From the NCBI GenBank assembly GCA_009602725.1, contig WELB01000025.1, positions 911,853 through 959,871 of the forward strand: a stretch of 48,019 nt of DNA. The letters run 5' to 3'. Both the position numbers and the translations under genes were made by a program. The notes under the pieces are model-generated. The model saw nothing but the letters and a program-made list of their open reading frames with translations. It was not told the DNA's origin and made no database searches. The stretch is from Spirogloea muscicola (lineage: Eukaryota). Shown here piece by piece: positions 18,335 through 42,869 of the stretch (positions are counted from its first letter, which is position 1; every line of letters begins with the position of its first letter).

Positions 18335-19660
18335 AGAGAAGTGGCTCTCGTAATGGGGGCAAGGCCTGTGAAAAGCCAGCCCGGACAGAATGGACAAGGT
18401 GCGGAGTGCAAAAGAGGCTCTGTCGGTGGGGGCAAGGGCTGCGAAGTGCCAGCCCGAAAAGAAGTGACAGGGTCGAAGGTGGCCAAACGGCGGAGGAACC
18501 TAAACGATAGAAGAGAAGTGAGTTTCCCAATGGGGGCAAGGGCTGTGAGAAGCCAGCCCAAAAAGAATTGACAAAGCTTCGAAGGGGCCAAATGGCGGAG
18601 GCGCCTAAAAGCGCTGTCAGAACGGGTGTAGGATGTGCGAAGGGGCCAAGCTACGAATTGGCCAGAGGCGCAGAAAGAGAGGGGGGCCATTGCCCAACAC
18701 GCATCCGCACGGGCAGGCGGCCTCGGCCTCCGTGGCAGCGACACCCCCTTGACCTGGCGGTCAAAACGATTCTGGCCGATCGACCCAATGTGACCCGGCC
18801 CAGAGAAGCTGGGCTCTGAGCTGGCCGGCCCCGCGCCCTAAACGCTACAAACACTACACGACGCTCCAACGCCCGCGCCCCTTGGTTCCCGCCCCTCCCT
18901 ACTAATAAGAGGGGAAGTTAGTTCCAGTAGAGGGCGGTCGCTGTGAGCGGCCAGCCCAGATGAAGATGATGAACAAAAGACTCCGCCTCTTTCCAGGAAT
19001 TCAATTCCTTTCGGCCTGGCTTCTCAGAGCCCTTGCCCCATTAGGAGAGCCACTTCTTTCCAGGGATGCTTCTAACCTCCACTGCCCTCATCCGGCTTTC
19101 GTCAAGGGGACCGCTTTCCGGCGGCTAGTCTTCATGACTTGCGGCTGCTAACTACAGGTGACTAAGTGATAGTTCTACATGGTCCTTGCTTGATTGTCTT
19201 TCAGCGCTTGTCGACCCATTCGGACCCCGTCAATTCTCTTCGGGCTGGCTTCTTACAGCCCTCGCTCCCTTCTGAAGAGCCACTTTTTCATCTCCACGCC
19301 CTGCGGTCTAAATACTCCTTCGTATCCGGACGTCCCGTGGGCTTATGTTGGGGTGACTCTTCTTTCCCAGCTGCACCTTACTGCAACTTGCAGCTACTGA
19401 CCTGGGACTGATAAGCTCCTACTTGCTGTAGCCAAATTGCACAGCTGCGTGACTCAAGCGCCTTTCGGCCCTCCAAGCAAGTCGTGCAAGTCGTGGGCTT
19501 CAAGACCCACTTCTTCCAGCTGAAGCTGAAAAATGTAACCGAATATGCATGTTGTCATGCCCGGGCGCAGAGCGGCGTTGTAGCGTCGGCCGGAAATCAA
19601 TCCCCTTGGCGACAGCCAGAAGAAGTGGCACTCCCAATGGGGGCAAGAGGGTGGTTGGGC
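18335..19660. repeat. Cluster of short non-LTR retrotransposon 3'-end remnants (hairpin module gggctggct..cagcccttgccccc.ttggg..gccac), both orientations
   Basis: Minus copies at ~18340-18395, ~18410-18465, ~18515-18575 and ~19620-19650; plus copies at ~19000-19060 and ~19225-19290. The same module terminates the CRE-like fragment at 40738-41150. Confidence 0.7.
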
Positions 19661-20248
19661 GGAACCGACCATGGCTAACCCTGGTTAAGATATCTCAGGT
19701 AGGAAGGTAGTATGGGGAACCTCAGCAGGGGTAACCCATGGGGTGACTCGCTGAGTAGGGCGCAACCCGTATGGGCGGGCTGGAGAGCCCCGGGGCGCCG
19801 AGTACCAAGTCCCTGTACCTACTGCCTTTCTCCGTATTATGTAGCATTATTTAGTCTGCACTCGACTCTGCCTGAACAATGTATTGGCTTGAATTGGCCT
19901 CCCTTTCAATTCATGCGCCCCGCGCGCCTTCTCTCTTGACCCAAACTCGCGGGGTGGGCTCTCAAGAGATCGGAGGGCGGAGAGGTGTTCTTTTTCCGCG
20001 GAAAAATAATTTCAGTGGAGAAGTCCCTCAGTGGAGAAAGAACCTAGCGCGCCGCCGCAGCCCGGCAAGGGTTGGCAGGGTTTGGCGCAGCGCAGGTTGA
20101 AGCTCCGGGCCAGGTTGGTCGGGGGGCCGAAGCGGCGAGTGATCCCCCGGCGGGGGTGACGACGCAAGCGAGAGGGAGGCAAGGTGTGAATATTTACTTG
20201 CGGAGAGATGGCCTCACCGGAGATCCAGATTTAGATCCAGATCTAGAT

Positions 20249-21315
20249 ATGCGGAGGGCGGGCGACGCGGCGGCAGCGGGAGCGGCGCATTGGGCTACCG
20301 GGGTTGGGATCTGGGTGCCCACCAGGAGCGGCGCGCACTACTCGCTACCGCCCGCGGATCGGCAGTGGGACGAGGCAGATCTGCCGCCGGAGTCGTCGGA
20401 CGACGGTGCTGCGGCCAGCGACAACGAGGGCAGCGCACCGTCCGACGACAGCATGGAGGAGACGGCCGTGAGACCGGGGAGGAAGAACACCGGAATGGCG
20501 GATGGGATCTCGCTCTTGGAACTGGAGATGAAGGTCGAAGCGTCTATGGCATGGATGGAACTCAACCACCGCTTCATGCGGTGGGTGGGTTTCAAGACTC
20601 TGCCGAAATTCTTGGACGGGCCGGCGCTATGGTACTACTGTTCAATCATGAAGGAGATTCTGGCCACCAAGGAGGAGGTGCCGGCTGGCGGGAGGCCAGC
20701 CAGCGGTGAGGATCATGGTGCTGCGGCAGAGGAGCTCATTGCGGGTCCGTCAGCGGCGGCGGAGGGGGCCCTGGGGGCGGGGACGCCGGCCCAGCGGGAG
20801 CATTTGCTGGCAGACCCTATCCAGCACTTCCTGCATCTGCTCAGCCTTCAATTCAAGACAGGCTCCGCGGGCAAGGTGGCGGAGCTGGTTAACTTTATCA
20901 CCTGCCAGGCGAGGACGTCATGGTCATGGCACAGCGCCTCAAGCAGCTGCGCCGTGACACGGGCAGGTTGACAGAGGTCGATGCGGCTCACAAGTTCCTA
21001 GAGGCCCTTGGAGGAGGCAAACAGGGGGCTTGGCTTGAGCAACAGGTCTTCGTAGCCTACCACCATACCTTCACCATTGACCAGGTGGCGGATCTCGCCG
21101 ATGACGTCGAGCGTCACTTCGCAGGGAAAGCGGTGGAGGTAGCGGCTTCAGTCAAGAGCAAAGGGAGGCCGGCTGCTCAGCCGCGGCCGTGGTCAGGGAC
21201 TTAGCCGAGACAGTGGCGGGTGCCCAGCAAGCAGGGCATGGCGGCGGCGTCGTTAGTACTAGCCGGGCCGGCTGGGGCCGGTCTCTGCTACACGTGCAAC
21301 CAGCCTGATCACATG
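20249..21315 (+). pseudogene. gag-like region of the Gypsy element (frameshift ~20905, in-frame TAG 21202-21204, truncated CCHC knuckle)
   Basis: ORFs 20072-20971, 20920-21204 and 21220 onward; [27 protein letters not shown]. Confidence 0.7.
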
Positions 21316-21450
21316 CTGTTCCGATTATTACAACCTCTAGCAGATGGTTTTAAATTAAGGATAAAAGAACCTATTTGGCCTAGTAGTGCAAACCTCTTGA
21401 TCTTTGTAATGGCTCCTGTTCTTACTTTTATGTTAAGTTTGGTAGCACGG
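21316..21450 (+). pseudogene. nad1: Mitochondrial nad1 fragment (NUMT) inserted in gag
   Basis: Abrupt AT-rich island translating [44 protein letters not shown]. This matches the conserved plant Nad1 segment [42 protein letters not shown] (recalled, not searched). Confidence 0.9.
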
Positions 21451-22139
21451 CCGCCTGGAGGAGCAGGGCGCGCGGTACCCCTTGTCGTTTGCGCGCTTTA
21501 CGGAGGTGGCTGCAGACGGGCCAGCGGCGTCTGGAGAGGGCGCGGGCAAGTCTCCGTGCGGCAGCTAGCGGCCGCACTCATGAGCACGCCCTTGCTGTGG
21601 TTGGCAAGCACGGGCTGCTCTGAGTTGGCGCTGAGGGAGGCGCTGCAGCAGCACCTGCCGGGCCCGCTGGAGGGCAACGTGGCGGGGTCGAGCGAATCAC
21701 CCAAGGCCGCCCAGGGGGGGGACGCCCCGACCGCCTGCAGTGACAACTCAGGGGCTTCCGAAAGGGGCCCCTGCAGGTCGATTCTACCCCTTTTGCCTGC
21801 TTCTGCAGCCGTGGGCGAGGAATCGGTGGCATTGGAGCGGCCACCAAGCACTTGTGCCGTTGGGGGGCTGCCCATGCAGAAGGGAGCCAGGCGCTCAAGG
21901 TCGCGCGGGGGGCGGACACCCCGACCGCCTGCAGCGAGCGTTCAGGGGCTTCTGGAAGGGGCCCCTGCAGGTCGATTCAACTCCTTCTGCCTGCGCCGGC
22001 AGCGGGCGAGGAATTGGTGACCTTGGAGCGGCCACCAAGCACTCGTGCCGTTGGGGCCCATGCAGGGGAGAGCCGGTCGCTTCCTAAGCGGCGGGTGGCG
22101 GAACGAGTGGGGATCACCCCCAACGTGGCGCTGGTAGTA

Positions 22140-22480
22140 CAACAAGACGGCTTTGTAAAAGTCAACGGCAAAGCTCCTGCCCGTGTCATGCTGGACACGG
22201 GTGCGCAGCCGGTGCTGCTTGGCCGCAGCATGGTGCCGCTGCTGAGGCTGCGCCCACAGGATCTGCAGCCGTCACCAGTGGCCATCAAGACGGCGACGGG
22301 CGGCGTCACGACGGGGCTGCGGCAGACACGCGAGCCTATTTGCATCACCCTCAACCAGGGCGGCGCAGACGAGGTCAGCCGGCGCCTCCACTGCTTAGTA
22401 ACGGAGGCCACAACATTAGATGTGCTGTTAGGCACGGAGTTCTTGTATCCATGTGGGGTGAGTGAAGACCTGTGGGAGGA
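22140..22480 (+). pseudogene. Retropepsin-type aspartic protease domain
   Basis: VKVNGKAPARVMLDTGAQPVLLG ... DVLLGTEFL in ORF 21852-22934. Confidence 0.85.
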
Positions 22481-22854
22481 GGTGGGGAGTTACCAGCCCG
22501 GGTACGCATGTGAAAAGGGACGCAAGGTAGAGTTCCCACTGCAGCTGGTTGCCGCAGTGGAGGAAAGGGCTGCATTCGCGTGCCACAGGGAGGCTGCGTG
22601 GGTGGGCAGCGACCTGCTGTCCATGCTGCCGGAGGAAGCGGCCTCCACGACATTGGCGGCAGTGCGCTCAGGAGTGGCTTTTGCAGGCCACGGGGCTGCT
22701 GCGCATGCGGTGCAGGTGGAAGAGCTGGTGGATCGCGTGTGGAAGCAGCTGTTACTGGTGGCGCAGGAGCTGCCAGCGTGTCCGCCGGCAGTTGTGCAGC
22801 TGCATGGAGAGCCGTTGGTGGACAGCACAACTATTGAGTGGACGATCCTGCACG

Positions 22855-23800
22855 GCGGGGTTGTCCTTTTGGAGCTCTTTGGCGGCATCGCCACCGGGCT
22901 GGCGGCGGTGTCGGCCAACGGTGTGCGGGTCTGACGGTACGTGTACGTCGACCCGGATCCGGTGGCGCAGGCCGCAGCAGCGCATCACATTCGGCGGCTG
23001 ATGGACGAGTACCCGGAGCTGCTGACCACGGAGGCCATCAAGGGGTACCTCACCACCCTGCCGGCTGACGTCCAGCTGGTGGGCCCACATCACCTCAGGG
23101 GGTTGGGACAGGTGGTTCTGGTGATTGCAGGTTGGGAGTGCCAAGGCCATTCCAGCGCTGGTGCAGGTCGAGGGTTAGCTGACGCCCGCTCACGGCTCTT
23201 TTGGGAGGTGGAGCGTGTTTTGGCACTGCTGCAGGGGGGGCAGGAGGCCCCCATAGCATACGTGTTGGAGAACGTGCCGGCAGGCAACGATCACTGCGAG
23301 AATGTGCAGCGTGACTTCCAGGTGGTGGAGAGCCGCATTGGGCGCGGCGTGCCTCTGGACGCAGCTGCTCTGGGCAGCCGCGCGCATCGGTTGCGAACGA
23401 AGTGGACCAACCTGGCTCAGCCAGAGTTGGTGGCAGCTGCGGTCGCATTAGTCAAGCGCCCAGCCGGGCTATGAGTGGCAGACAGATTGGACCCGGGGAG
23501 GGTGCCTCAGCCAGTGAAGCGGGACGACATGCCTCCGTACGCGCTGTGCAACAAGGTGGGGCAGCCACGGGCGGCGTTGCCCACGCTGGTTAGCTACCGG
23601 GCGTCTTACGCGTTCAGGAATGGAGGCCAGGGTATGGTGTGGGACAATACCAGCGCCTGGAGGAGCCCCGTGCCGACGAGCGGGAGCGGGCGTTGGGCTT
23701 CCAGACCGGCACAACAGCGGCTCCTGGGCTCACCGAGCGGCAGCCTCGGAAGCTGTTGGGGCAGGCTATGGATCTGAGGGCTCTCACGTGGGTGCTGTCG
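22855..23800 (+). pseudogene. C5 cytosine DNA methyltransferase domain within the retrotransposon polyprotein (two in-frame TGA stops, one frameshift)
   Basis: Ordered motifs: I VLLELFGGIATG (~22870), II YVDPD, III ADV, IV LVIAGWECQGHSSAG (catalytic Cys 23139-23141), V GLADARSRLF, VI YVLENV (23268), VIII HRLRTKWTN, IX ERERALGF, X LLGQAM. The frame is the same as the protease across TGA 22932 and TGA 23472. Confidence 0.9.
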
Positions 23801-24277
23801 GTAGGCTTTGCCGCGCAGTGGAGCCAGCAGGCAGCGTGGCAGCTGGCGCAGGGGCTCTCCATACAGTGAGCGGCGCGCGCAGGCGCTGGCGGCTTTCCAC
23901 TGGGGGGGGGGAGTAGAGCCGCAGCTTGAAGAGGTGGCACCCAAGGCCGCGCAGGGGGCGGACACCCCGACCGCCTGCAGTGAGAATTCAGGGGTCCCGA
24001 AAGGGGCCCCTGCAGGTCGATTCAACTCTTTCTGCCTGTGCCGGTATCCTTGGGCGAGGGATCGGAATTTGTGGAGCAGCTACCAAGCACTCGTACCATT
24101 GTGGCGGTCCCTGCAGGGAGGAACCCATCGCTATACGTGGCCCAGCAGCAGGAGGCTGGGGGGGGGCCCGCATAGCAACCACAGCAGGAGAAATTGGGAT
24201 CAGGGAAGGAGAAGCTGCCCCACGAGTGGGATGTGGGCGAGGAGTTGTCCAACCAGGAGTAGACGTTTGCCTTCTCC

Positions 24278-25600
24278 ATGGCGGAAGTTGGCACCTGCCA
24301 GTTAGGGGAAATGACGATTGTGCTGACCACAGCAGAGCCGGTACACCAGCGGAGGCATCGGCTCAGCCCGGTGGAGTGGGCGCTGGTGCAGGTGCGCTGT
24401 GAGGAGCTAATGCAGGTGGGGCTCATCGAGGAGTCGGAGTCGCAATACGCGGCGCCGACGGTGATGCCAGCGAAGAAGGACCTTTTTGGCCAAAGGACGG
24501 AGAAGAGGATGTGCGGGGAACACCGCGCCCTGAATGAGGTGACTCAGCCTGATCACTATCCCATGCCCACCCGAGAGGAGATATTTGATGAGCTGGGTGC
24601 AGCGTGCGTCTTCAGCATCTTGGACCTGCGCCAGGATTTCGATCAGATTGGAATCGAGATGGAGGACAGGCCAAAGACAGCCTTCTGGGGAGCGGAGCGG
24701 CTCTACCGGTGGACGCGCATGCCATTTGGGTTGCGCAACGCCCCGGCCAGATTTCAACGCGTGATGGATCAGGTCTTGGCGGGGTTGCGCTTTGCCAGAT
24801 GCTACATTGACGGCGTGTTGGTGTTTAGCACAACGGTGGCAGAGCACGTGGCGCACGTGGAGGCGGTGCTGGGGAGGATTGGGACATCCGGAATGAAGTG
24901 TCACCCAGGCAAGTGCTGGTTTGGGGTGGGCACGGTATCGTATATGGGACATGAGGTAACACCAGGAGGGTTGGGCATGCAATGGGCGAAGGTGGACGCG
25001 TTGATGTGCGTGCCAGTGCCTACAAACATCAGCAGGCTGCGAGCCTTCCTGGGCCTGGCAAGCTTTTATCGGCAATTTGTGAAGGGCTTCCCCGCTGTCG
25101 TGAAGCCGCTGAATGAGCTGCCGAAGAAGGGGGAGCCGTGGGTGTGGACAGCGCCGCGGCAGCAGGCGTTCGAGGAGGTGAAGGAGCGCCTGTCTTCTGC
25201 GCCGGTGCTGAGGCGGCCGGACTACTCCAAGCCTTTCCACTTGCATACAGATTGGAGCCAACTGGAGCTGGGAGCAGTTTTGGTGCAGGAGGAGAAGGAG
25301 GGACAGGAGTATGTAGTAGCGTATGCGAGCCGTTCCAACAACGCCGCGGAGGCCAACTACAGCTCTTATGAGGGCGAGTGCCTTCGCGTCTTGTGGGCGG
25401 TGGTGCACTTCCGTCCATACTTGTATTGCAGAACATTTGTGCTGGTCACCGATCATCAGCCGTTGAAATGGCTTATGACGAACCAGAAGCTTACCGGCAA
25501 ACACGCAAGATGGGCGCTTACCCTGCAGGAGTACAACTTCGAGATCCGCCATTTGCGGGGGAGACACACTTGGACGCTGACGGCCTCAGCCGCAACCCCA
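24278..25600 (+). pseudogene. Reverse transcriptase and RNase H of the Gypsy element (catalytic YIDD mutated to YIDG)
   Basis: ORF 24278-26209, with YIDG at 24803-24814. The RH C-terminal HLDADGLSR lies in a shifted frame after ~25555. Confidence 0.93.
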
Positions 25601-26319
25601 AACCGAGCACTCAAGACAGGATTGAGGCACGGGCGGACCACAACAGTGCGGAGGTGGAGCTGCCCGCGTGGTCGGCTTCGGCGATGCTGCTGCAGCTGCT
25701 TGACACGACCGAAGGCCGCGCGGAAAGCGGACACCCTGACCACCTGCAGCGAGAATTCATGGGCTTCCGAAAGGGGCCCCTCCAGGTCGATCTACTCCTT
25801 CTGCCGGCCTGTTGGATTGGCGCAATGCGGTTTGAAGTCATCTCCGGCGTGGCGGCACAGTCCGACCACCGTGGCGTCTCAAATGAGCGGCGGCGCGGCG
25901 GGAGCAAGAGCGTTGGGAGGGTCGGGAGTGTGGAGCGGGAGCAGGCGATTGAAATACGCGGGGGTAACGAATAGCCTGGCCGCCGTTATGGAAGAGACCT
26001 CCAGGTGGTACTGTCGCCGTGGAGCCATGCCGCAGCTGCTAGGCTTTGCCACTAGCGATGTTGTATGTGAGGACAGGGGCGTGGCAGGAGGCAGATTGAC
26101 CACATATACTGCTCCGAGGCTCGTGCCAGGGGAGACCTCCCAGCAGGCGGCTGGGGGTGCTCCGGACGTGTGGAGCGACCTGGAGGCTGGAGTACCTCCA
26201 ATGGCCTGAACATCCGTCGGGGAGGAGCAAGGCGAGCAAGGACCGTGAGCAGCAGCGGGCGCAACGGTACCGGTGGCGCAAGGGCCACCTGCTGCTGTTG
26301 AAGAAGGATGGTGGGGAGA

Positions 26320-27400
26320 GAGTGGTGCCCAGGCCAGCAGAGCGGACGCCGTTGGTGCTGCAGCAGCATGAGCTGCTTGGGCACTTCGGGGTGAAGAGGA
26401 CCCACAGCCTGGTTGCGTGTGGTCACTGGTGGAAGGGGATGGCCAGGGATGTGGCTGCGGTGGTGGCGCGGTGCGAGGCCTGCGACCGCGTCCGAGCCAA
26501 CCTCATGGTGCGCAGCGTACAGCTGCATCCACTCCCATCAACGGACTCTTCTACAGGTGGAGTCTTGATTTGCAGGCGAGCTGCCACTGTCGAAGCGTGG
26601 GCTGTGCTAAATCTTGATTATGGTGGAGCACGCAAGCAAGTGGGTAGAAGTGGTTGCCATCACGGACAAGTCCAGCTCGCTGATCGCAGCTTGCTTCCTG
26701 CATCGGGTGTTGTGCCGCTTTGGGGCCTGCGCTGAGGTGCTCACCGATGGCGGTACCGAGTACCGCGGCGCGTACGACAAGTTGTTGGAGGACGCCTTGA
26801 TCGACCACAGGACGACCTCGCGCAACAACTTGCAGGCAGACGGGCTGGCGGAGCGGATGGTTCAGACAGTGAAGAGGGGACTGCAAAAGTTCTGCCTGGA
26901 GAGGGACACCAGGGATTGGGATCTATTCCTCCCCTGGTTGCTGCTGGGGTACCGCATGAGTAAGCAGGCGGCGCTGGCGAGCTACTCGCCGTACTTCTTG
27001 CTCTTTGGCAGGCATCCTCTGCTGCCAGCTGCCATCCGACCGCGGGTGGAGCCAGTGGTGCACATGAACAGCCCAGGGCGCTGGGTGGCGATCTGCGAGG
27101 AGTGCGGGAGGCTCTTCTGCAGGGTCATGCCGATGGCGATGGGCAACTTGGCAGTGGCGCAGCATCGCGACAAGCTGCGCTACTCGCAGGTGCGGTCAGG
27201 CAAGTACCAGCCACGGGTGATGAAGTTTGAGAGGGGTGACTACGTGTATGTGCAGCGCCAGCAGCGCAGCACCTTGGACGCGGGTGTCCGGCGGGTCGTC
27301 CTGCAAGTGAAGGAGGTGAGGCCCAGCGGCGTGCTGCTGCTGCAGGGCCGGTGCGGATGCACTGTTGCAGAGCACCAGCGCAACTGTGAGCCGTGCCATC
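26320..27400 (+). pseudogene. Gypsy integrase (HHCC zinc-binding + DDE core), frameshifted
   Basis: QQHELLGHFGVKRT..WWKGMARDV..CEACDR; WSLD; VEHASKWVE; LTDGGTEY; QADGLAERMVQTVKRGL; SPYFLLFGRHP. Confidence 0.9.
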
Positions 27401-27458
27401 TTCCCGACCTGGACTGCACTGTCGACTACACCTTGGTGTGGACGAGGAGGGGATGAGG

Positions 27459-27599
27459 TGTGAAGTGTGTGGCGGCTTGAACACTGAGCCGCCCATGCTG
27501 CTATGCGACCGCTGTAACGAAGGGTGGCACACTGGCTGCTTGCAGCCACCTCTTGCTGAGGTGCCGGCCGGGCAGTGGTTCTGTCCGCGCTGCGCATAG
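27459..27599 (+). pseudogene. PHD finger (C4HC3) at the polyprotein C-terminus
   Basis: CEVC-GGLNTEPPMLL-CDRC-NEGW-H-TG-C-LQPPLAEVPAGQWF-CPRC-A-stop; canonical PHD spacing. Confidence 0.92.
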
Positions 27600-27779
27600 T
27601 GCTGTCATAGTTAGGGTGCTTAGCCGTCAGAGGATGCAGCTGCCTCTCGGGTCCAGGCAGCTGGGAAGGGGGTGTGGCGACTCTTCTGCCACATTCTTTG
27701 CAGGTCTGCTCATCTGGTAGTGAGGCTATGCAGGGCACGCTGCTGCCAGCCAAGCAGAGTTCCTGGCCTGTAGGCGGGG

Positions 27780-29440
27780 CTTCAGGTGTGGCAATTTGAC
27801 GTATTGTGAGCGCTGAACGGGCAGGCACGACAATGTAAATGTCACGCTTCAAGAGGTCAACAGTGCAGGCAGGTCATGTGACCTGTCCTCACCAATCTGT
27901 ACACTATCTACACAGGGAGCTGGTGGAGTCTCTCCCAAGTAGAATGCTAGTGAACCGAAAAGTAAATGTGCAGGTAGATATATACATAAGAGCTGCTGGG
28001 GGGATGATACATGACACCCTCATGGAGGTATTTGGGGGGTGTCGTGCATCATCCATCAATGTACATGGTATAATGTACATGTATCTACATCCTTAGCAGC
28101 GGTGGTCCTCGCTTTCACCTAGCGATCCGGTCCCAGAGCTCTATCCTCGCTTTCACCTAGCGATCCGGTCCCAGAGCTCTATCAATCTGTGAAGGCCCAA
28201 GTGTTCGACCAACAGTTGGTCTGCTTCAGATAGTACCACTGTTGGCGCCTGCACAAGGCACTGGGCCCACTTTTGGAGGTCAAAAGACCCGACTTGTCTC
28301 AGAGAGTCAGGATGATGAATTACAGCTGGAGTGTGGAAATTGGATTCTTTCAGAGCATCGTGTCTGCCAAGCACTCATTGATGGCTAGGAGCACTCTCGG
28401 AGCAATACTTGATGTGAAGCACATCTTCCGGCCTTCAAGAGCTTGTAGCATTCCTACGAACACAAAGTCGCACCTCAACAACATCAGAAAAACACTGGGT
28501 GGTGTCCAATGAGGATTCGCAGCACCAAATGGCAACAGGACAACCAGAGCAGACAAGTGCATCAGCGGCATTGTATATGAAGGCATGAAGGCTTGAGCTC
28601 ATTCTCTGCACCAGCAGCCACGGGAAGGACCTCCGTAACACAGAGTTGCACCTCAAGGACACCAGGTGAAAGCTGGTTGGTCCCCACCAGGGGTGCCAGA
28701 TGCTTGACTACCTACAGGAGAAAGGGAGCAGACGAATGCATCAGCCGCACTGGTATGCAGGCATCACGGCTTGAGCATGGCCTCTGCACCCTCAATCACT
28801 CCCGGTGGCACCAGTGTGGCCCACTCTTTGGGGGCCGCACTGCCGCACCTCAACGACACCAGGAATGGTGTGGATGGTCTCCATCGACGCTCGTGCAAAA
28901 CTGTTGAGACAGACAGACAGAGAGAGCAAACAACTAGATTAGCAGCTGTTGATACGCAGGCAGTAAGGCTTGAGCACAGACTCTGCACCTGCCAAGTGGT
29001 GGCAGTGTGGCGCTACTTCAGTGCACAGAGTCGTACCTCAACGGCAGCAGGAGACTTCAGATGTGCAGCACAGCACCACCTCTGTGCAGAATCCTCTCGT
29101 CTGAGTACTTTGCTGGGACCAACAAGGTCGAACCGATCTGCGCAGACAGCTGCGCGTGTCACCGCCAGGTGGGGTGACAGAGCCCGCAAGGAGTCAGCGG
29201 AGGCCCATGGACGGCCGCGGCGAGTGGCCGCGGCTCCTCTGCTGGTGACTGCACGCGTGCTAGCGCGGCGCCGGGGCCGGCGATCGACCGGCCGCAGATG
29301 TCTGCGGATGGCGGCGAGGCAGGCCTCGGGCCCCGGCGGGCGTCAGGGCGACTGCTGGCGGGGCCTCCCGGAGGAGCGGCGGGAGGCGGGCGGCGGCTCG
29401 GCGGCGGCGGCGGCGCGGGCGTGGGCGGGGCGGACATGGT
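27780..29440 (-). pseudogene. Unknown intron-containing gene family, copy 1 (decayed)
   Basis: Nucleotide homology to 34880-36650 and 46150-48019. Possible ATG at 29437 (MSAPPTPAP). 60-nt exon 28711-28652 reads VVKHLAPLVGTNQLSPGVLE; a larger exon reads HPDSLRQVGSFDLQKWAQCLVQAPTVVLSEADQLLVEHLGLHRLIELWDRIAR. Confidence 0.6.
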
Positions 29441-30139
29441 GCGAGTATGGGGCTATATTAGCGCGGGAGGGAGGGAGGAGGGAGGGACTCGGCGCGGCCC
29501 CGGGCCGACCGAGCGGCAGCGGGCCCGCCGTGCCGGTGGGTATGGGCGTCACACCAGCGCGCGTGACACTTGTGCGGCGCGGTTGTCCGCCGCATGGCAG
29601 TGGGGATCGCAGGGCGCGCCACCGGCCCGGGCGGGGGGGAGGGCGGCGGCCGAGGGACCATCTTCCCGACGCGGCGGCGGCGACGGGGGCGGCGGAAGCG
29701 GAAGAGCCAGACCCCCCGGAGGAAGGTGCTGTGAGCAAGGAGTGGCACAGTTTCGATGCGGCCATGAAGGCGCCTGAGTGGCTGAGGGGCAGAACCTCGC
29801 GAATCTCCTGCGGGATCTCCCGCAGAACCTCCACACCCTCCACAGTGCGGCGGGCCGCGCACAGGGTGGCGGGAGACCCCCGTGGCTGGTGGCGGTACAC
29901 CACCGCCACCCTGCCCCTTCTCGCTCAGCATCTTGTGGTTCCACATCTGAATTTGGGTCCAATTCAGAGCTTTCTTCTCTAAGTGCCGCCATCTTCTTTC
30001 GCAGCCCTCGTCGCCATTTCGTATGCACTTCTATACAGGCATGTCCATCTATTTCTTCCTTCCGCTCAAAGGGGGCGAGAGGCAGCCCCTGAGCTCCGCA
30101 GCCCCGTCCACTTGCAAGAAAGAGCGCGCCCATAGAAGA

Positions 30140-30510
30140 TGAGCTCGCCCATAGAAGAGAGGAGCTGGCAGAAGCCAGCCAAAAAAGAATGGACAAAATC
30201 CAAAAGAAGGGAAACACACTAGCTAGGCATCGAGACAACTAGACATGACGGAACCACACGAAGTTCAAAACCCGCGGGTGAGCAACATCAGGTCAGAGTA
30301 GCTCGAAGCTGGAAAAGATGCAGCCGGACGAGACCCGGAAGCAGCAACAAGAGCACGGCCCGCGCGCGAGCTATCGTTCTGGCATAGAGGATAGTAACCT
30401 GCAAAAGCCAGCCCAAAATAGAATCACAAAGGACGAGAAGGGGGCCAGGGGAAGTGCTCGCCCATTGAGAATAGGGGCTGGAACAACCAGCCCGAAAAAG
30501 AATGAACAGA
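30140..30510 (-). mobile_element. Two stacked 5'-truncated non-LTR retrotransposon 3' ends
   Basis: 30140-30300 reads (minus) DLMLLTRGF*, then a 3'UTR and the hairpin ggctggcttctgccagc..ctatgggcgagctc. It is near-identical to 40290-40470 and 42277-42415. 30450-30510 is a second tail type. Confidence 0.75.
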
Positions 30511-30539
30511 GTAGGGGAAGCGCTGACAAGCACACCTTC

Positions 30540-31025
30540 GGCCCCGGAGACGCCACGCGCCGACCACATCTATCCGACCTATTATGTACCTGCTACAACA
30601 GCGCTCACGTCGAGTTTCGGTTGGTTGTTGCCGTACCATTCATCTCCGACGATTGCTTTTGTCGGGGCCCGTCAAGGATGCGGAGGTGGCTGCACACGTG
30701 GAGTCTTTGGCACGTCATTTATCTAGCACGGTGTGAAAGGGTCTCCAGCTCTGCTGCGGTCAGCAACCGTACGTAATGTCTGCCTGTGCCACGATTGGCA
30801 GCAGTGCATCACTCCTTTTGCTGATTTCTTTCCAGCAGGTCATGTCTACTTCTTTGTTAGTTGTTCCTATGATTTGGTCTATTCCACATCTGTCTATGTG
30901 CTTCTTGCCTTTTACGACATCTTTTCGCCGGCTAGCTATTCAGAGCTGCATCTCTTGACGAGAGGTTACTGATCCTTTTTTGGGCTGGCCTCTCCCAGCC
31001 ACCAGTCAATCTGGCCGCGCTTGCT
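30540..31025 (+). mobile_element. 3' fragment of CRE-like non-LTR retrotransposon
   Basis: FSPASYSELHLLTRGY* (stop ends 30972), followed by gggctggcctctcccagccaccagtcaatctggccgcgc and a T-rich tail. Confidence 0.7.
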
Positions 31026-31029
31026 TTTT

Positions 31030-34879: not shown

Positions 34880-36650
34880 TTTGATAAATAAAGTCGAAGC
34901 CACCTACGTGCTTCTCTGTGGCGATTTGTAGAGGAGTACTTTGTGACGTCGCAATGACACTCGTGATGTGTCAGTATGCCTATTTCTGTCTGCAAGAGAC
35001 TGAGATAATTGACCTGTCTTTTTGGGAGAAAAATGAACAGCCATGCAAGTCATGGGGTTGCAAACCCACATCTTGCAGCTGCAGCTGAAAATTGTAGCTG
35101 AAAATGCAGCTCACTGTGTCGCAGTTCAAATCATCATCACGCAGGCAGGTAAATAGTCTGCCCTGACTACTCTGTACAAGTTTGTGTACGCAGGCGGCTG
35201 GTAGAAGTCCCAACCATAAAGTGAAGTTAGCACAGCACAAGGTACAGAAGCTAGCGTCCAGACAGGAATATATAAGAAGAGCTGCTGGAGGGATGATGCA
35301 GAATACCCTCATAGAGGTGTTGTGAATGTGTTCTGCATCATCCAGGATTGTACACGTATTCACGTACTTAGCAGCGGTAGATCATTGCTAACTTTTGATG
35401 GTGGGCCCGTGTATACTATACACCCTTGCTTCACCTGGGAAACTGGTCCCAGAGCTCTACCAAATGGTCAGGGCCTAAGTCGTTGACCAACCGCTGGTCT
35501 GCCTCGGTCAGTACCGCTGTTGGTGGCTGCACAAGGGACCGAGCTCACATGAGAAGTTCAGCAGACCCATATTGTCTCAGATGGTCAGGATGACGACGTC
35601 TAACTGTATTGAGCGCTGTAGATAGTTTCGGTGCACGTTATGTCTACCAGCACTGATTGATGGCTAGGATGACCTTGAGAGCACTATGAGATATGTTGAC
35701 CTTGAGAGCATTATGAGATATGTTGGGCCTTCAATAGCTTTTAGCACTTCTATGAAGACATAGAGCTGCACCTCAAAGAAACCAGGAGATGTCTGGGCGG
35801 TGTGCAATGACGGCTTTGTGGAATTGGTTGCCTTCAGAACAACCACAACAGATGAGTGCATTAGCGGCACTATATTTTCAGGCATGAGGGCTTGAACTCA
35901 TCCTCTGCAACTGCCAAGTAATACCGGCGGCCACGGTAAGGGCCTTCTCCGTGACAAACGACGCACCTCACCAACACCAGCAAGACTCTGGTTCTGCGCC
36001 ACCAAAGGTATCTTGACGTTCTTCTCTGTCTTAAATTCGACACTAAGTACCTACAGAACGAAGAGAAAGCAGAGAAATACATCAGCCGCATCGTTATGCA
36101 GGCAATACGGCTTGAGCGTATTATCTGCACCAGTCAAGTAATTCCAGTGGCAGCAATGTTGCCCTTCTGCGTGAGACAGTGCCACACCTCGATGATACCA
36201 GGAAGTCTTTCTCCGCCCATCAAAGAAGCTCCAGGACTGAGTGCCTACAGGAAAAGTAGAGCATACGACTGCATTAGTCAGTTGCAGCAGTACAGCTTGA
36301 GCACAGACTCTGCACCTGCCAAGTGGGTGGCCTTCCTTTGGGACGCAGGGTCGTACCTTGACAACACCCACACGCAGTCTGGCCGGACTCCAACAAGAGA
36401 TTCGCTGGAGTGACTGCCTGCGGGACAGAGAGAAGGCGAAAAGCATATCAGCGGCACATGATGTGAAGTACTACACGGCCTCTCTGCCAATACTTCGACT
36501 TTGCGGACTTCTTGTGCCGGCTAGACTGCGCAGAGACCCGCGCGCGTCATAGCGAGGTCAGGGGTTCGAGCCCGCCAGAGATCAGCGACGCCATGGACGG
36601 CCTCGGCGAGCTCCCACCCCGCCTGCAATCCCGCTCGTGCCATGAGTTCG
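34880..36650 (-). pseudogene. Unknown intron-containing gene family, copy 2 (decayed)
   Basis: Four tandem AG|exon|GT units: 36417-36357, 36244-36188, 36050-35967 and 35831-35772. Then HPDHLRQYGSAELLM*ARSLVQPPTAVLTEADQRLVNDLGPDHLVELWDQFP, with TGA where copy 1 has TGG. Confidence 0.65.
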
Positions 36651-37559
36651 CCCGAAGCGCATCCGCGCGGGAGGAAAGCCTCACGGGATTTGCGAATGCG
36701 GGGCCGCCGAAGGGGACGCGCAACAAGGGGCCTCGGGCGCCTTTCGGCCGTCGCCTGTCAGTACGCGATCGGGCGGTCCGCATTGGCTGGCGAAGTCGTC
36801 ACCTTCTGGCGGGCGCCCCTGGCTTTTTGGCGGATGCTGCTTAGGTGGCGTTACCACGTGACGCCAAAAGGTGGCCACCGCACGAGCAGCGCCCACAGGT
36901 GACATTCTGCAGCTGCTCCTCTGCTTCTACAGGCTGCCAGGCGCCGGCTCAGGCCCGCTCCGCTTAACAGAGAGATGGGTCGCCAACAGAAATCACCGCA
37001 AAAGCTGCAGCCAGGTAACACATGCCAACCTTCTGTGGTCTTGTCAGGCTGGGCTGCTTCGGCGTGCCATACAATGAAAGCCGTGGCCGACAAAGCACGT
37101 CATAATGCGCGCTTGATCCAAGCCGTGGCCGTCGATAGGACGTCATCCGCCTCTTCGGCAGCTGCCTCCTTGTTTTGGCCCGTCCAGCCGCCACGGCATT
37201 GGCCCGGGGCGCCACGTGATGGTTGTCTCGGCCAGTGCTGGTGGCAGCTGTGCCACGTGTTTTTCACACTAGGTGCACCTGCCGCGGACGGCTGTTTCCT
37301 TGTGCTCACAGCCGTTGCTGTCAATTTGGAAGAAGTTGTTTTTCTTTTCGTGCCCTGGCCCTTTTCTCCAGCCCCTTTTCTTTAGGCTGGTGCCCACTAC
37401 TACTGGAGACGCCATTCTCATGCTCATGATGCCTCGCCCCCTTAGCTTCTCTAGTTCTTCATGCGTTTATATGTGACAGGTTATCGACGGCTCACTTGGC
37501 AAGCCCCCTTGCTGTGTTGTTGGATGCTTTGCCCCAGCCCCAGCGGCATCCTCCCTACA

Positions 37560-37705
37560 GAAGAAAGTGCTCGCCCATTGAGAATAGGGGCTGGAAAAGC
37601 CAGCCCAAAAAAGAATGAACAGAGTACGAGAAGGGGGCCAGGGGAAGCGCTAAGAAAAACAAGCACACAGAGAAACAAAGCAGCTACGAATCACTCAGTA
37701 ACCTC
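37560..37705 (-). mobile_element. 5'-truncated non-LTR retrotransposon 3' end
   Basis: Minus strand: ggttactgagtgattcgtagctgc...ttcattcttttttgggctggcttttccagcccctattctcaatgggcgagcactttcttct. Related sequence occurs at 38990-39055, 39770-39885 and 42675-42825. Confidence 0.75.
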
Positions 37706-38029
37706 CATACAGGACGCACAAAGTCTCTGCAAACCCTCATGAAGCCCATTATTACATACCGCATTCTCGGCTGAGCCTGGTGCTTACGCCCACTTTTGCT
37801 TCTTGCAGTCTATCCACCCTAGTTAGCACTCAATTTTTGGGGCTAAATAAGACATATGTCAAGCTCAACCAAAGTGGGGCGATGGTAATCACACAGACGG
37901 TCAGAACAGAAAGAAATAGACAAGTCAAGTCCTCATATCGAACCCAGCGAATAGAGCATTTTCCAAAAGCAGGGCGATGGCTGTGAATGGCCTGCCCGAA
38001 GAAGAATGGAAAATGTTCGCCGGGGCGGA

Positions 38030-38520
38030 AAGAAAGCGCGGCCAGATTGACTGGTGGCTGGGAAAGGCCAGCCCAAAGGAATGGACAATGTCTGACGAAA
38101 CCGGAGTGCGAAGGACTAGGAAAGAGACATCAGCCAGGGGACACTCATTAACCTCTAGTCAGGAGATGCAAGTCTGAGTAGCTAGCCGGCGGAAAGACGT
38201 CGCCCTGATGGAAGCCGAAGGCCGCCGCCAAAGCTCGGCCTGCGCGCAAGTGAACCACGAAGGCAAGGGACCGCTGCATCGAGACGGCCAAACGCATGCG
38301 GAAAACTTGAGCGAGGGACCCGGCGACGTTGAAGCCGGGCTGCTCGCCCCGCTGCCCGAGGCGGCGGGCCGCTGCACGCCGTGCGAGGCGGTGGAGCAAG
38401 TCAAGCCATTTCGAGCCAAATGCTCCGTGCACGTCGACTGCCAGTGGAACGAATTCGTCCCCCGCCGGGTGATCCGAGCCCAAAGCAGAGGACAAGGTCA
38501 GAAGGGCCGGATGACGCAAG
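38030..38520 (-). mobile_element. 3' fragment of CRE-like element (restriction-like endonuclease C-terminus + 3'UTR)
   Basis: DHPAGDEFVPLAVDVHGAFG..LAQVFRMRLAVSMQR..SYSDLHLLTRG*, followed by a 3'UTR hairpin at 38035-38090. Confidence 0.85.
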
Positions 38521-38984
38521 GAGCAAGATACTAATAGCTAAGACGTCAGCAAGTAGAAATACAGGAACGAAGAAGTGAAACAGAGAACCAAAGTCCCACA
38601 GGCGGGGAAGCAATGGAATCACACATTCACGGAAAGGTGATGAACAAGCTCGTCCAAGGGGCGAGGGCTGGGAAAATTGTCGAAACACTTTGCCTTCCCG
38701 AAGAGAAAGCGCGGCCAAAAGGGGGTGAATGGCCAGCCCGATGACTAAAGCGCCCATGCATGCGCTGACGATGTGTCTCCTCCCTAACCGTAATAACCTA
38801 TACCTGTAACAAATGCTGTGGATCGCCAAGCCCGGGCTGCCGGCAGCGCAAGGAAGAGCGGGGAGGCATTGGGATGGGGCTGCAACGGTAAAAGTGAGCA
38901 ACGGTTACTGCAGGGGCAAGAAGAATTCCGTCCAGGGGTTCGAGGTTTGGTGAAGAACACACCACCCCGTCTCCCATCTCGGGT

Positions 38985-39240
38985 GCCGCTGATGTGGCTG
39001 CTTAGCAGGGGTTACTGAGTGATTCGTAGCTGCTTTGTTTCTGTGTGTGCTTGTTATTCACAACCTCCTTCGCGATGCCCTGGCGGGCTTGATGCGCGAC
39101 GCCGGCTACCGTGCGGTCGTGGAAGTCAACAAAGTCATGCCTATTCATATAGCCCGGCGGACTGCAAGCCCGGCGCCCGTGGAAAATTTTGGCACCCAGT
39201 CTTTCGTTGACGTCTACGACCTGTCGACGGCTATCAACGG
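38985..39240 (+). mobile_element. Mosaic of CRE-like fragments
   Basis: LMWLLSRGY* plus the start of a 3'UTR, fused to HNLLRDALAGLMRDAGYRAVVE (region following the zinc knuckle, before the endonuclease core). Confidence 0.65.
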
Positions 39241-40289
39241 GCTACCAGCGACAATCTACCCCATCCATCGGCCACTACCGCCATACTTACGGTCCCCCGT
39301 CACTAGCAGCTGACGGTCACTACCCCCAGGCTGTCGTGAGCCCGTCTGACGTTCCCGTCAACACTAATGGCTAACAACGCCGTCAAGGCAGTCTACAGCG
39401 CTGCCGCCTCCCGTCGTCATTCCAGCGCCAGCCAGCACCGTGCTGTCTCGCGCGTCACGACTCCGGGTTGCGCCGCTCTCAGTTCTAGGTTGAACTGACG
39501 CTGCCCAGCTTGGTGAAACTGTCCGTCTCCAGGCATCTGTCAAGCCTTTCCTGCGGCACTGACAGTCAAATTATCCATCAGCCGGATGAGGTGTCTGGTC
39601 AGGCATCTGTCAATACCATACTGCCGTATTGACATTCCAACCATGTTAAATTTGTTACAATACCCGTAAAACTTTTGGTAGGCGCGGCGCTTTGGATTGG
39701 CGGGGTTTTGGCCACGTGCCGGATTTCAATGACCCCACGTTCCCCCTTCGCCCCTGCCGACGGAGCCCTCTTTCTGTGCTTATATATCTTAGCGCTTCCC
39801 CTGGCCCCTTCTCGTACTTTGTTTTCATTCATTTTTGGGCTGGCTTTTCCAGCCCCTATCCTCAACGGGCGAGCCCTTCTTCTTTCTGAGCTGGCTTTGC
39901 CAGCCCAGAGTGGTTTTGCGATAGCGCTTCTGGCCCCTTCGTAGATTTGGCCCCTTTGAACCTTGTCAATTCGTTTGGGGCTGCCTTTTCACCAGCCCTT
40001 GCCCTTATTGGGAGAGCCACTTCGTCTGCTCACTAGCGCAGGTATACCGCATGCGGCTGGCGGTCTCGTTTTAGCGCTCCTTGGCTCACGCAGTCCACAC
40101 GCAAGCAGGCCGCGCTATGGCTTGCTGCATCTATGTCTCGGCGGAGTGCCTCTTTCCCAGCTGCGAGTTACTCAGACTTGCTGTTGCTCACTCGTGGGCA
40201 CTGAGCTTCAACATGCATCATCTCGTGTCTGCTTGTGTAGTTACTCTTTTTGGCACCTTCTTGGGCCTTTGAATATTGTCCAAAAGAAA

Positions 40290-42865
40290 GAATGAGCTCG
40301 CCCATAGAAGAGAGGGGCTGGCAGAGGCCAGCCAAAAAAGAATGGACAATATCCAAAGAGCTCCAACAGGTGCCGGAAAGAAGGGAAACACACTAGCTAG
40401 GCATCTAGACAACTAGACATGACGGAACCACACGAAGTTCAATACCCGCGGGTGAACAACATCAGGTCAGCCAAAAGGGGCTTTGCCAGCCCCTCTTCTC
40501 TCTGAGCGAGCACTTTAGACGAGGATTACCTCGTCTAAAGGGGACGGCCGGTCACGGCCGTTGCCTTACACTTTTTCGTGCACGTTACATCATGTGCACC
40601 CGACGCCATTTGTGGCACGGCTGTCAGGTGTGATCCCCTAACCACAGGGTGACTGCAGATTGCGTAGACTCCGCTAAGCCCGTCAAGTCGACGACGCTCG
40701 CCGGGCACGCGGTCGCGTTGGCGGCTCGGTGTAAGAAGAAGTGGCACTCCCAATGGGGGCAAGGGCTGCGAAAAGCCAGCCCATTAAATATTGACAAAGG
40801 TTCGGAGGGGCCTACATGCGTGCAGCGGCTACGAAGAAAAAATTCCGTGTCTTAGAAAGAAATGTAGGCCAAATGGCCAAGTACGAAGGCAAGCACATCT
40901 GAAGATCTACATAACCTTCAGCAGCTTGACCCGCTCAGTAAACACGGGTCAAAACATAAAGGTCACTAATCGATGCATGAATACTAGATGCCAGAAACGG
41001 AGCCCTTCTGCCACCAACTAGAGCTCGCCCAGCTTTCTGGTGCAAGGCATTAGCCTGAGCACGCTGCAAACAGGCCGAAACTCGTCGTCGCAAGAGCGAC
41101 AGATATGCAGCTGGTGAGCCCATCTCAGCCACAAACACATCTGCACAAGGGGCCTGAAGTAAGTAGCGCAAGTACTGTGACCACCCTCCAGGCGACGACT
41201 TCGCGGCCCTGGCCATTGACGTTCACGGGGCGTTCAGCAGCGGCTGGTTGGATCTCCTCCACCGGCTTGCCCGGCAGGGCCATCGAGCGGCGGCCGGGTT
41301 CACCAGGCTTCAATGCTGCCGGCTCCCTCGCTCAGGTATTTCGAATGATACTGGCGGTCTCGGTCCAGCGTTCCTTGGCTCATGCGGTCCACACGTGCGC
41401 TGGCCGCGTCATGGCGGATGAGCTCGCCCATAGAAGAGAGGGGCTGGCAGAAGCCAGCCAAAAAAAGAATGGACAAAAGCCAAAGAGCTACAGGAGAATT
41501 ACTCAGTAACCCCTGCTAAGCAGCCACAGGTCGGAGATGCTAGGCTCGTGGAAGTGGGTCCCCTGGCCAGAGCCAGAGGCAGCAGCGAGGGCTCTGCCGG
41601 CACGACGGTGCAACGCCCGGGCCATAGACCGCTGCAGCGAGACGGCCAGGCGCATTCGATACACTTGCGCCAGCGACCCGACCGCAAGAAAGTCGACCCG
41701 CTCCCCATGGAAGCGACGGGCGATGGTGTGGCGGGCGAGCTGGGTGAGCAGCTCGAGCCACCGAGCGCCCAGCGCCCCATGGGTATCAATGGCCAACGGG
41801 AAGAACTCGTCTTCCCGCGGGTGGTCAGCGTACTTCAGCTCTTTGGCCCGAGCAGCGCAGGCGACCGCATACCCAGCCTTGGTGGCACATTGAGCTGGGT
41901 GTGAGCGGTCGTAGCGGCTATGGCCGCTGCCTCAGGGTCTCTGCAGAGTGCTGCTTTTCCTGCTTCGAGTTATTCGAAGAGAAGCGCGGCCAGATTGACT
42001 GGTGGCTGGGAAAGGCCAGCCCAAAGGAATGGACAAGGTCTGAGGGAGCCTGAGTGCGAACGACTATTCTGATTGGCTGTTGCTTACAGTGGATGCTGAG
42101 CATCCATCTGCATCATTTTGTGTCTTGGTGTGTAGTCTTGTCTTACCGGGCATTGTTTTGTGGCTTTCGAGGCCTGTGGTCATTGTCCATTCTTTTCTGG
42201 GCTGGCTTTGCGCGAGGGCTGTGAAAACAAAGCGCGGCCACATGAACTAGTGGCTGGGAGGGGCCAGCTCAAAGGGATGAGCTCGCCCATAGAAGAGAGG
42301 GGCTGGCAGAAGCCAGCCAAAAAAGAATGGACAAAATCCAAAAGAAGGGAAACACACTAGCTAGGCATCGAGACAACTAGACATGATGGAACCACACGAA
42401 GTTCAAAACCCGCGCGCGAGCTCATTCTTTGCTGGCCCCTCTTTTTCTATGGGCGAGCCATCTTTGCCCCCGTTGAGAGATCCACTTCTTCTTTCCGACC
42501 TGCGGCTGCTTAGCAGGGGTTTCTGGGTGATTCTCCTGAAGCTCTTTGGATTTTGTCCATTCTTTTTTGGCTGGCTTCTGCCAGCCCCTCTCTTCTATGG
42601 GCGAGCTCATTCTCCTTTTCGATTCAGTCTCTTGCTTTTGCGCCATCTGGCCCCTCCAGACCTTGTCCATTTTTTACTGAGTGATTTGTAGCTGCTTTCT
42701 TTCTTTGTCTGCTTTGGTTTCTTAGCGCTTCCTCTGGCTTCCTCTGGCCCCCTTCTCGTTCTTTGTTCATTCTTTTTTGGGCTGGCTTGTCCAGCCCCTA
42801 TCCTCAATAGGCGAGCCCTTTCTTCTCTTTTGGGCTGGCCTCTCACAGCCACCAGTCAATCTGGA
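40290..42865. mobile_element. Pile-up of nested, 5'-truncated CRE-like fragments in both orientations
   Basis: 40290-40470 (-); 40738-41150 (-, RVSACLQRAQA..SDLYVLTRVY*); 41160-41418 (+, KYCDHPPGDDF.LAIDVHGA); 41418-41915 (-, KELKYADHPREDEFFPLAIDTHGALG..SDLWLLSRGY*). Tails at 41985-42045, 42277-42415, 42497-42610 and 42655-42865. Confidence 0.85.
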
Positions 42866-42869
42866 AACG

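Follow-up and report, generated by a model that had tools for sequence, protein, structure and literature searches.

We analysed a window of 48,019 nucleotides of contig WELB01000025.1 from Spirogloea muscicola, and all coordinates below are positions in this window. We are highly confident that its + strand carries, from about 20,200 to 27,600, the decayed remains of a Ty3/Gypsy element in whose Pol a DNMT3-like C5 methyltransferase (DNMT) lies between the protease (PR) and the reverse transcriptase (RT). Three-frame translation of 20,000-27,700 and comparison to Pfam gave the domain order Gag-PR-DNMT-RT-RH-IN-PHD, where RH is RNase H and IN is the integrase. This includes the PR-RT-RH-IN order of Ty3/Gypsy, and the top matches of the element's RT-RH are Gypsy-order polyproteins. 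A preliminary description, made from the sequence alone, had proposed a Gypsy element with a DNMT between protease and RT, and the domain order bears this out. Outside the element, none of 30 other frames in the window has a Pfam match above the cut-off, and no tRNA gene was found in the window. The features are:

20,210-21,312, + strand: Gag-like region with broken frames (weak zf-CCHC match, E = 0.054; otherwise Gag by position)
21,286-21,312, + strand: interrupted CCHC knuckle CYTCNQPDH at the end of Gag (by position)
21,318-21,446, + strand: fragment of mitochondrial nad1, 129 nt, within the Gag knuckle (PF00146, E = 8.4e-8)
21,690-22,081, + strand: linker repeat of about 190 nt in two tandem copies (about 80-85% identity between copies)
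22,158-22,448, + strand: aspartic protease, with DTG at 22,188-22,205 (PF13650, E = 1.3e-8; PF13975, E = 1.6e-8)
22,860-23,810, + strand: DNMT3-like C5 cytosine methyltransferase, motifs I-X (PF00145, match to DNMT3A, tblastn of intact relatives)
22,869-22,886, + strand: methyltransferase motif I, LELFGG
22,938-22,952, + strand: motif II, YVYVD
23,130-23,144, + strand: motif IV, GWECQ
23,265-23,276, + strand: motif VI, LENV
23,358-23,396, + strand: motif VIII, DAA..RAHRLR
23,678-23,698, + strand: motif IX, ERERALG
23,753-23,773, + strand: motif X, LLGQAMD
24,359-24,955, + strand: reverse transcriptase, catalytic motif decayed to YIDG at 24,803-24,814 (PF00078, E = 2.8e-23)
25,145-25,540, + strand: RNase H (PF17917, E = 5.3e-36)
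26,319-27,045, + strand: integrase zinc finger and core, frameshifted, with a stop at 26,608 (PF17921, E = 7.5e-14; PF00665, E = 1.6e-6, under the cut-off)
27,459-27,593, + strand: PHD finger at the end of the integrase (PF00628, E = 5.3e-13)
27,663-27,978, + strand: polypurine run, then TG (27,663-27,675), then a segment of higher copy number; probably the 3' terminal repeat, of approximate extent (by sequence)

State and class of the methyltransferase domain

Motifs I-VIII lie in the frame of the protease, read through TGA stops at 22,932 and 23,472, while motifs IX-X lie in the frame of the RT, downstream of a frameshift near 23,650. The preliminary description had the motifs in order and in frame with the protease. 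They do occur in order and where it had placed them, but because motifs IX-X are past the frameshift, the shared frame is true for motifs I-VIII only. The catalytic cysteine, the ENV, and the RxR that it had pointed out are all present in this copy. It was also correct that this copy is dead: the catalytic motif of the RT has become YIDG, two stops and one frameshift break the DNMT, frameshifts also split the integrase, and the nad1 fragment sits in the Gag knuckle.

A match to PF00145 and a structural match had been proposed as checks of the domain, and both were obtained. The domain matches PF00145 with E = 8e-8 (32.5 bits, compared to a cut-off of 22). When the read-through protein is compared to the sequences in the PDB, DNMT3A comes first (E = 1.4e-7), followed by DNMT3B and DNMT3C, and bacterial enzymes have E of 0.03 or more. 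A profile built from 55 domains of the family finds DNMT3A with E = 1.5e-25, DRM-type enzymes with E = 5e-13 to 6e-10, HhaI with E = 7e-8, and DNMT2 with E of about 1e-3; DNMT1 is absent from the 56 matches of this profile. The profile aligns motifs IX-X to the C-terminus of DNMT3A, and the motif order is unpermuted. For the fold, we modelled not the window copy but the intact domain of P0190, which is its nearest relative by RT (69%). The AlphaFold model has a pLDDT of 95.7 and a pTM of 0.93, and all 36 matches listed by Foldseek are DNMT3A, DNMT3B or DNMT3C (best E = 4.8e-19, TM = 0.69). By this ranking of scores (as opposed to a rooted tree with host genes), the domain appears to be closer to DNMT3 than to DNMT1, DNMT2, DRM or the bacterial enzymes.

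The catalytic domains of mammalian DNMT3A and DNMT3B share the fold and the unpermuted order of motifs I-X with the element's domain, but they are only 21-22% identical to it and have GSPCN where it has GWECQ. Also, the element's domain has an extra helix after motif II, lacks PWWP and ADD domains, and is embedded in Pol.

Other copies in the host were read from the contigs of four coded runs, representing at most two samples. These contigs span the whole element and include many diverged copies, with up to 15 distinct contigs at one site in the DNMT. The frameshift near 23,650 is absent from the other copy contig that covers that site. At both edges of the nad1 fragment (21,317 and 21,446), one contig from run X1 continues into other sequence. 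Among the best 40 of 86 differences in the DNMT (chosen by support), 24 are synonymous, against an expectation of 11.4 for substitutions of these types (P = 2.5e-5; this is a rough test and not a Ka/Ks estimate). This excess suggests that the DNMT was under purifying selection during the family's active period. Neither of the two TGA stops is among these 40 differences. Finally, one host contig jumps from 22,494 to 24,140, or from the end of the protease to just before the RT. Its short side is 27 nt. It is weak evidence for a host copy without the DNMT.

Relatives, layouts and the catalytic loop

A query spanning motifs II-VIII matched 804 clusters (at 50% identity) with E of at most 1e-3, and 360 with E of at most 1e-10. 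From 150 listed clusters of the 804, three further searches, and cluster look-ups, we collected 343 proteins and assigned their layouts by local profile domain mapping. (Near-duplicates are included, and the counts reflect the limits of the searches, not abundance.) Layout A, which is PR-DNMT-RT, accounts for 62 of the 343, including the window copy. Layout B, which is RT-RH-DNMT-IN and mostly has a PHD finger, accounts for 163; here the DNMT adjoins the integrase. Another 82 proteins could not be typed, for shortness or other reasons, and 36 have no DNMT. Seventeen type-A proteins (PR-DNMT-RT-RH-IN) and 13 type-B proteins (PR-RT-RH-DNMT-IN) run from protease to integrase in a single ORF. Most of the collected proteins are unnamed. 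All 15 of the named type-A proteins are from streptophytes (13 from Closterium, GAQ93235.1 from Klebsormidium nitens, and MARPO_0091s0058 from Marchantia), and all 11 of the named type-B proteins are from chlorophytes (Scenedesmus, 2; Monoraphidium, 1; Haematococcus, 7; Tetrabaena, 1). The top two matches (80% and 86% identity over the matched stretches) are gene models from Spirogloea muscicola itself.

Could the DNMT be a one-off nested insertion, or a gene fragment, between protease and RT? This copy does contain one true insertion, the nad1 piece, and five stops separate its DNMT from its RT (the end of the DNMT and the RT are in one frame). But 61 other proteins share layout A, many diverged host contigs span the domain, and tblastn shows that intact relatives are collinear with the element through protease, DNMT and RT; in P0190, the DNMT is continuous with the RT. 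Together with the 804 matching clusters, this refutes a one-off nested insertion, whose chances we consider negligible. Nor did the preliminary description's worry that related elements might lack the domain materialize.

A few proteins have other arrangements. Nine type-A proteins (P0182-P0185, P0187, P0188, P0016, P0155 and P0210) end soon after the DNMT, at about 1,330 amino acids in six clusters. These consistent lengths suggest a sub-layout of type A with Gag-PR-DNMT as ORF1 and the RT in a second ORF; the enzyme would then be made at the stoichiometry of Gag. P0292 and P0302 (RT-RH-IN-PHD) fall inside the type-B clade and have no DNMT beside the RT-RH or the integrase. They are candidate losses of the DNMT and would be useful natural controls. 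Given these two proteins and the host contig that skips the DNMT region, the module may be dispensable. P0296, P0322 and P0336, which are PHD-bearing Gypsy neighbours outside the DNMT clade, have a Dam-type domain (PF05869) instead. In a pattern scan of metagenome contigs, no relative was found among 160 candidate stretches.

The preliminary description considered GWECQ to be an unusual form of motif IV, but within this family it is the norm. In 297 related domains, the residue before the catalytic cysteine is glutamate in 178, proline in 70, and another residue in 16 (33 have no readable motif). Both glutamate and proline occur in both layouts, so GWECQ is a family trait, and we reject the idea that it reflects the decay of this copy. 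On a tree with 186 rows, there are at least 12 changes between proline and glutamate at this position. To our knowledge, a proline before the catalytic cysteine is nearly fixed in other C5 enzymes. Of 255 near-complete domains, 213 retain the complete catalytic set of cysteine, EN and RxR.

DNMT-bearing retrotransposons were already known, as the preliminary description had said. KnitGypsy-Dnmt3 from K. nitens was described by de Mendoza et al. 2018 (PMC5890265; we cite the part of this paper that was available to us) as a Gypsy element whose Pol includes a Dnmt3-like domain that lacks introns and has kept its catalytic residues. We assume that GAQ93235.1 (P0155) is a copy of this family. P0155 is collinear with the window copy (29% identity over 526 columns, E = 1e-53) and sits, on a long branch, with it in the type-A half of the DNMT tree. 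Its order, knuckle-PR-DNMT, is the same as here (this is read from P0155 and not from the paper's figures), but its motif IV is GFPCQ instead of GWECQ, and the element studied here likely has a zygnematophyte as its host. Because of this collinear layout, the element's family is not separate from the published Gypsy-Dnmt3, and the suggestion in the preliminary description that it might be a new family does not hold. The 17 intact single-ORF relatives of layout A also have the Gypsy-Dnmt3 trait, an intronless Dnmt3-like domain in the Pol ORF.

Two other systems are similar. SymbioDIRS-Dnmt3 elements from Symbiodinium, as described in the same part of PMC5890265, have a Dnmt3-like domain in Pol, two domain orders, and purifying selection, as here. 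But they are DIRS elements with a tyrosine recombinase, they arose by separate captures, and their hosts are dinoflagellates, whereas the elements studied here have a DDE integrase and a PHD finger. DAM-LTRs and EpiLTRs are algal Ty3/Gypsy elements that carry a methyltransferase module, which in one clade sits between the RT and the integrase (accessible part of bioRxiv 10.64898/2026.05.21.726589). The enzyme of DAM-LTRs is an adenine methyltransferase, like the Dam-type domains of P0296, P0322 and P0336, and the cytosine enzyme of EpiLTRs is sister to DNMT4.

The accessible text of that preprint lists Gypsy-DNMT3 as streptophyte only. Similarly, the available part of PMC12344493 places TE-borne DNMT3 "in streptophytes and dinoflagellates", and that of PMC9998398 reports no DNMT3 in any green alga among the MMETSP transcriptomes. 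The available parts of PMC6453930 and PMC9940879 have nothing on these Gypsy-Dnmt3 elements. In the literature that our search could reach, in part as excerpts (most subscription journals and supplements were outside it), we found no paper on Gypsy-Dnmt3 from chlorophytes, zygnematophytes or liverworts beyond the 2018 paper and its citers. That Gypsy-Dnmt3 extends to zygnematophytes is no surprise; less known are the chlorophyte layout, with the DNMT between RH and IN, and the proline/glutamate variation of the catalytic loop. Dnmt3-like annotations in chlorophytes, zygnematophytes and liverworts can be transposon domains. Many type-B proteins lack a precomputed PF00145 label, so domain-based surveys would undercount them.

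Origin and role of the domain

In the DNMT tree, a single branch separates type A from type B, with an SH-aLRT support of 100 in a tree of 147 of 165 rows and a support of 89 in a tree of 186 of 212 rows. (Because DNMT3 from the host plants was not among the rows, host genes do not serve as a root.) The RT-RH tree has 94 of 184 rows, after dropping near-duplicates, 47 random unnamed type-B rows, and 2 others; its outgroups are all Gypsy-order and do not form one side of a branch. In this tree, a single clade (SH-aLRT 99) unites types A and B with eight rows whose protein has no DNMT; PHD-bearing Gypsy elements of another layout, as well as animal and angiosperm elements, fall outside it. Type B is a clade (support 100), and type A is unresolved at the base; the monophyly of type A is not rejected (AU test with 60 rows, p = 0.39). 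Distances for the DNMT and the RT are correlated (Mantel rho = 0.61, 109 of 138 two-domain proteins), both within type A (0.77, 15 rows) and within type B (0.40, 94 rows), and the two trees have 47 of 106 splits in common. Such a correlation is what long joint inheritance of the DNMT and the RT would produce.

The simplest reading, and in our view the probable one, is that the domain was captured once and then relocated within Pol, which would account for both layouts. Alternatively, sister Gypsy lineages might have captured related Dnmt3 genes separately, or one of the layouts might have reached chlorophytes by horizontal transfer. Sister lineages are compatible with the clean split of A and B in the DNMT tree and with the AU test, and the dinoflagellate DIRS elements took up Dnmt3 twice, at two positions (available part of PMC5890265). 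Against two captures, types A and B share GW[E/P]CQ and an insert, L..YP.LL, which are absent from DNMT3A; they are about 35-47% identical to each other, which is far above the 21-22% identity to DNMT3A and DNMT3B; and their RTs form one clade apart from the PHD-bearing Gypsy elements without a DNMT. We consider separate captures or transfer less likely. On the basis of a single capture and relocation, we tentatively propose a broader history, which might well fail in some part. Gypsy-Dnmt3 would be one ancient PHD-bearing Gypsy clade across green plants. An active Dnmt3 would have been captured once, before or across the split of chlorophytes and streptophytes, and the whole module would later have left the PR-RT junction for the one between RH and IN. 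In chlorophytes, for which the transcriptome survey reports no cellular DNMT3, these would be the sole de novo enzymes of the Dnmt3 type, with a GWECQ loop that lacks the canonical proline.

What does the domain do? The DNMT is in Pol, it adjoins RT-RH in both layouts (on the N-terminal side in streptophytes and on the C-terminal side in chlorophytes), and its catalytic residues are kept. These features argue that the DNMT acts on cDNA. We think it fairly likely that the DNMT is a normal, conserved module of Pol and that in live relatives it methylates the element's new cDNA as reverse transcription proceeds or immediately afterwards. That it does so in cis is favoured by a little. The DNMT would be packaged with Pol and either cut free by the protease or left fused to RT-RH. 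The double-stranded cDNA would then be methylated in cis, giving the new copy its mark before it arrives, and the PHD finger of the integrase would read the H3 tail and guide insertion. The solved PHD fingers nearest to that of the element are from ATXR5, CHD4 and KDM5B. PHD fingers of ATXR5, CHD4 and KDM5 are mostly readers of H3 tails that are unmethylated at K4. By analogy, the integrase's PHD finger would fit insertion into silent chromatin.

Alternatively, the enzyme could act at or after integration, in a complex with the integrase and its PHD finger, and methylate the new insertion and the flanking chromatin instead of free cDNA. In the 163 type-B proteins, the domain does adjoin the integrase, and the PHD finger is nearest to H3-tail readers. 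DNMT3 enzymes, too, have a PHD-like reader and work on DNA in nucleosomes. However, in layout A about 900 residues separate the DNMT from the integrase (P0189 and P0192), several Closterium-like type-A proteins have no PHD finger, and what the two layouts have in common is adjacency to RT-RH. We consider action at integration to be improbable.

Methylation of cDNA in cis was also proposed by the authors of the 2018 paper. In the available part of that paper (PMC5890265), Dnmt3 domains from dinoflagellate transposable elements gave de novo CG methylation in yeast, but the domain from K. nitens did not methylate yeast DNA, an outcome that the authors call inconclusive. This raises the possibility of a non-catalytic or RNA-directed role: the domain might bind and shield the cDNA or the genomic RNA, or its substrate might be RNA, with any methylation of DNA incidental. 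The toggling between proline and glutamate beside the catalytic cysteine would fit such a role. So would the absence of CpG loss: we saw no CpG depletion as a sign of self-methylation, with an observed/expected ratio of 0.79 in the element and 0.71 in the flanks, although this test is weak because the flanks are probably methylated repeats. On the other hand, most of the near-complete domains have kept the catalytic residues, the predicted fold is that of a complete DNMT3, including the target-recognition region, and human DNMT3B likewise failed in the same yeast test (same part of PMC5890265). A non-catalytic or RNA-directed role seems even less probable than action at integration, and methylation of cDNA remains our preferred explanation. 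Since there are intact single-ORF relatives, with both layouts and both types of motif IV, the activity and substrate of Gypsy-borne Dnmt3 can be tested on many more candidates.

Termini and repeats

At the likely 3' terminal repeat (27,663-27,978), the summed contig depth rises, and contigs have joints at 27,669/27,670. No LTR pair links the 5' and 3' flanks within the window, and the 3' segment has no upstream match there. The available part of PMC5890265 reports a DIRS-like repeat structure for KnitGypsy-Dnmt3. We found no DIRS-like split repeats: there are no repeated termini in the window and no such junction among the 15 contig joints that were listed out of 115.

The linker repeat that lies in two copies between Gag and PR has more copies at 23,936-24,132 and 25,708-25,808 (lengths range from about 100 to 190 nt). 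It thus sits in three inter-domain linkers: Gag-PR (twice), DNMT-RT, and RH-IN. As a family-wide recombination site that moved the DNMT module, it is unsupported, since a protein-level search with the repeat's peptide gave no match among the collected relatives. Possible readings are a small nested element and a trait of the subfamily.

On its 5' side, the element adjoins a different, very high-copy repeat that ends near 19,937. This repeat (about 19,620-19,937) is short, and its summed contig depth exceeds that of the element's interior by a factor of several hundred. Its 3' end is constant and lies in a CT-rich tail; its copies have many different neighbouring sequences and are also joined in tandem. 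Another repeat, about 1 kb long and diverged (about 66% identity), contains internal sub-repeats; it starts directly after the element's 3' segment and is found at 27,978-29,003, 35,268-36,331 and 46,946-47,373. Lastly, a family of repeats of 55-150 nt, in both orientations and up to 97-100% alike, is spread over the window at 18,337-19,303, 30,131-31,027 and 37,557-42,871; these are possibly the termini of non-autonomous DNA elements.
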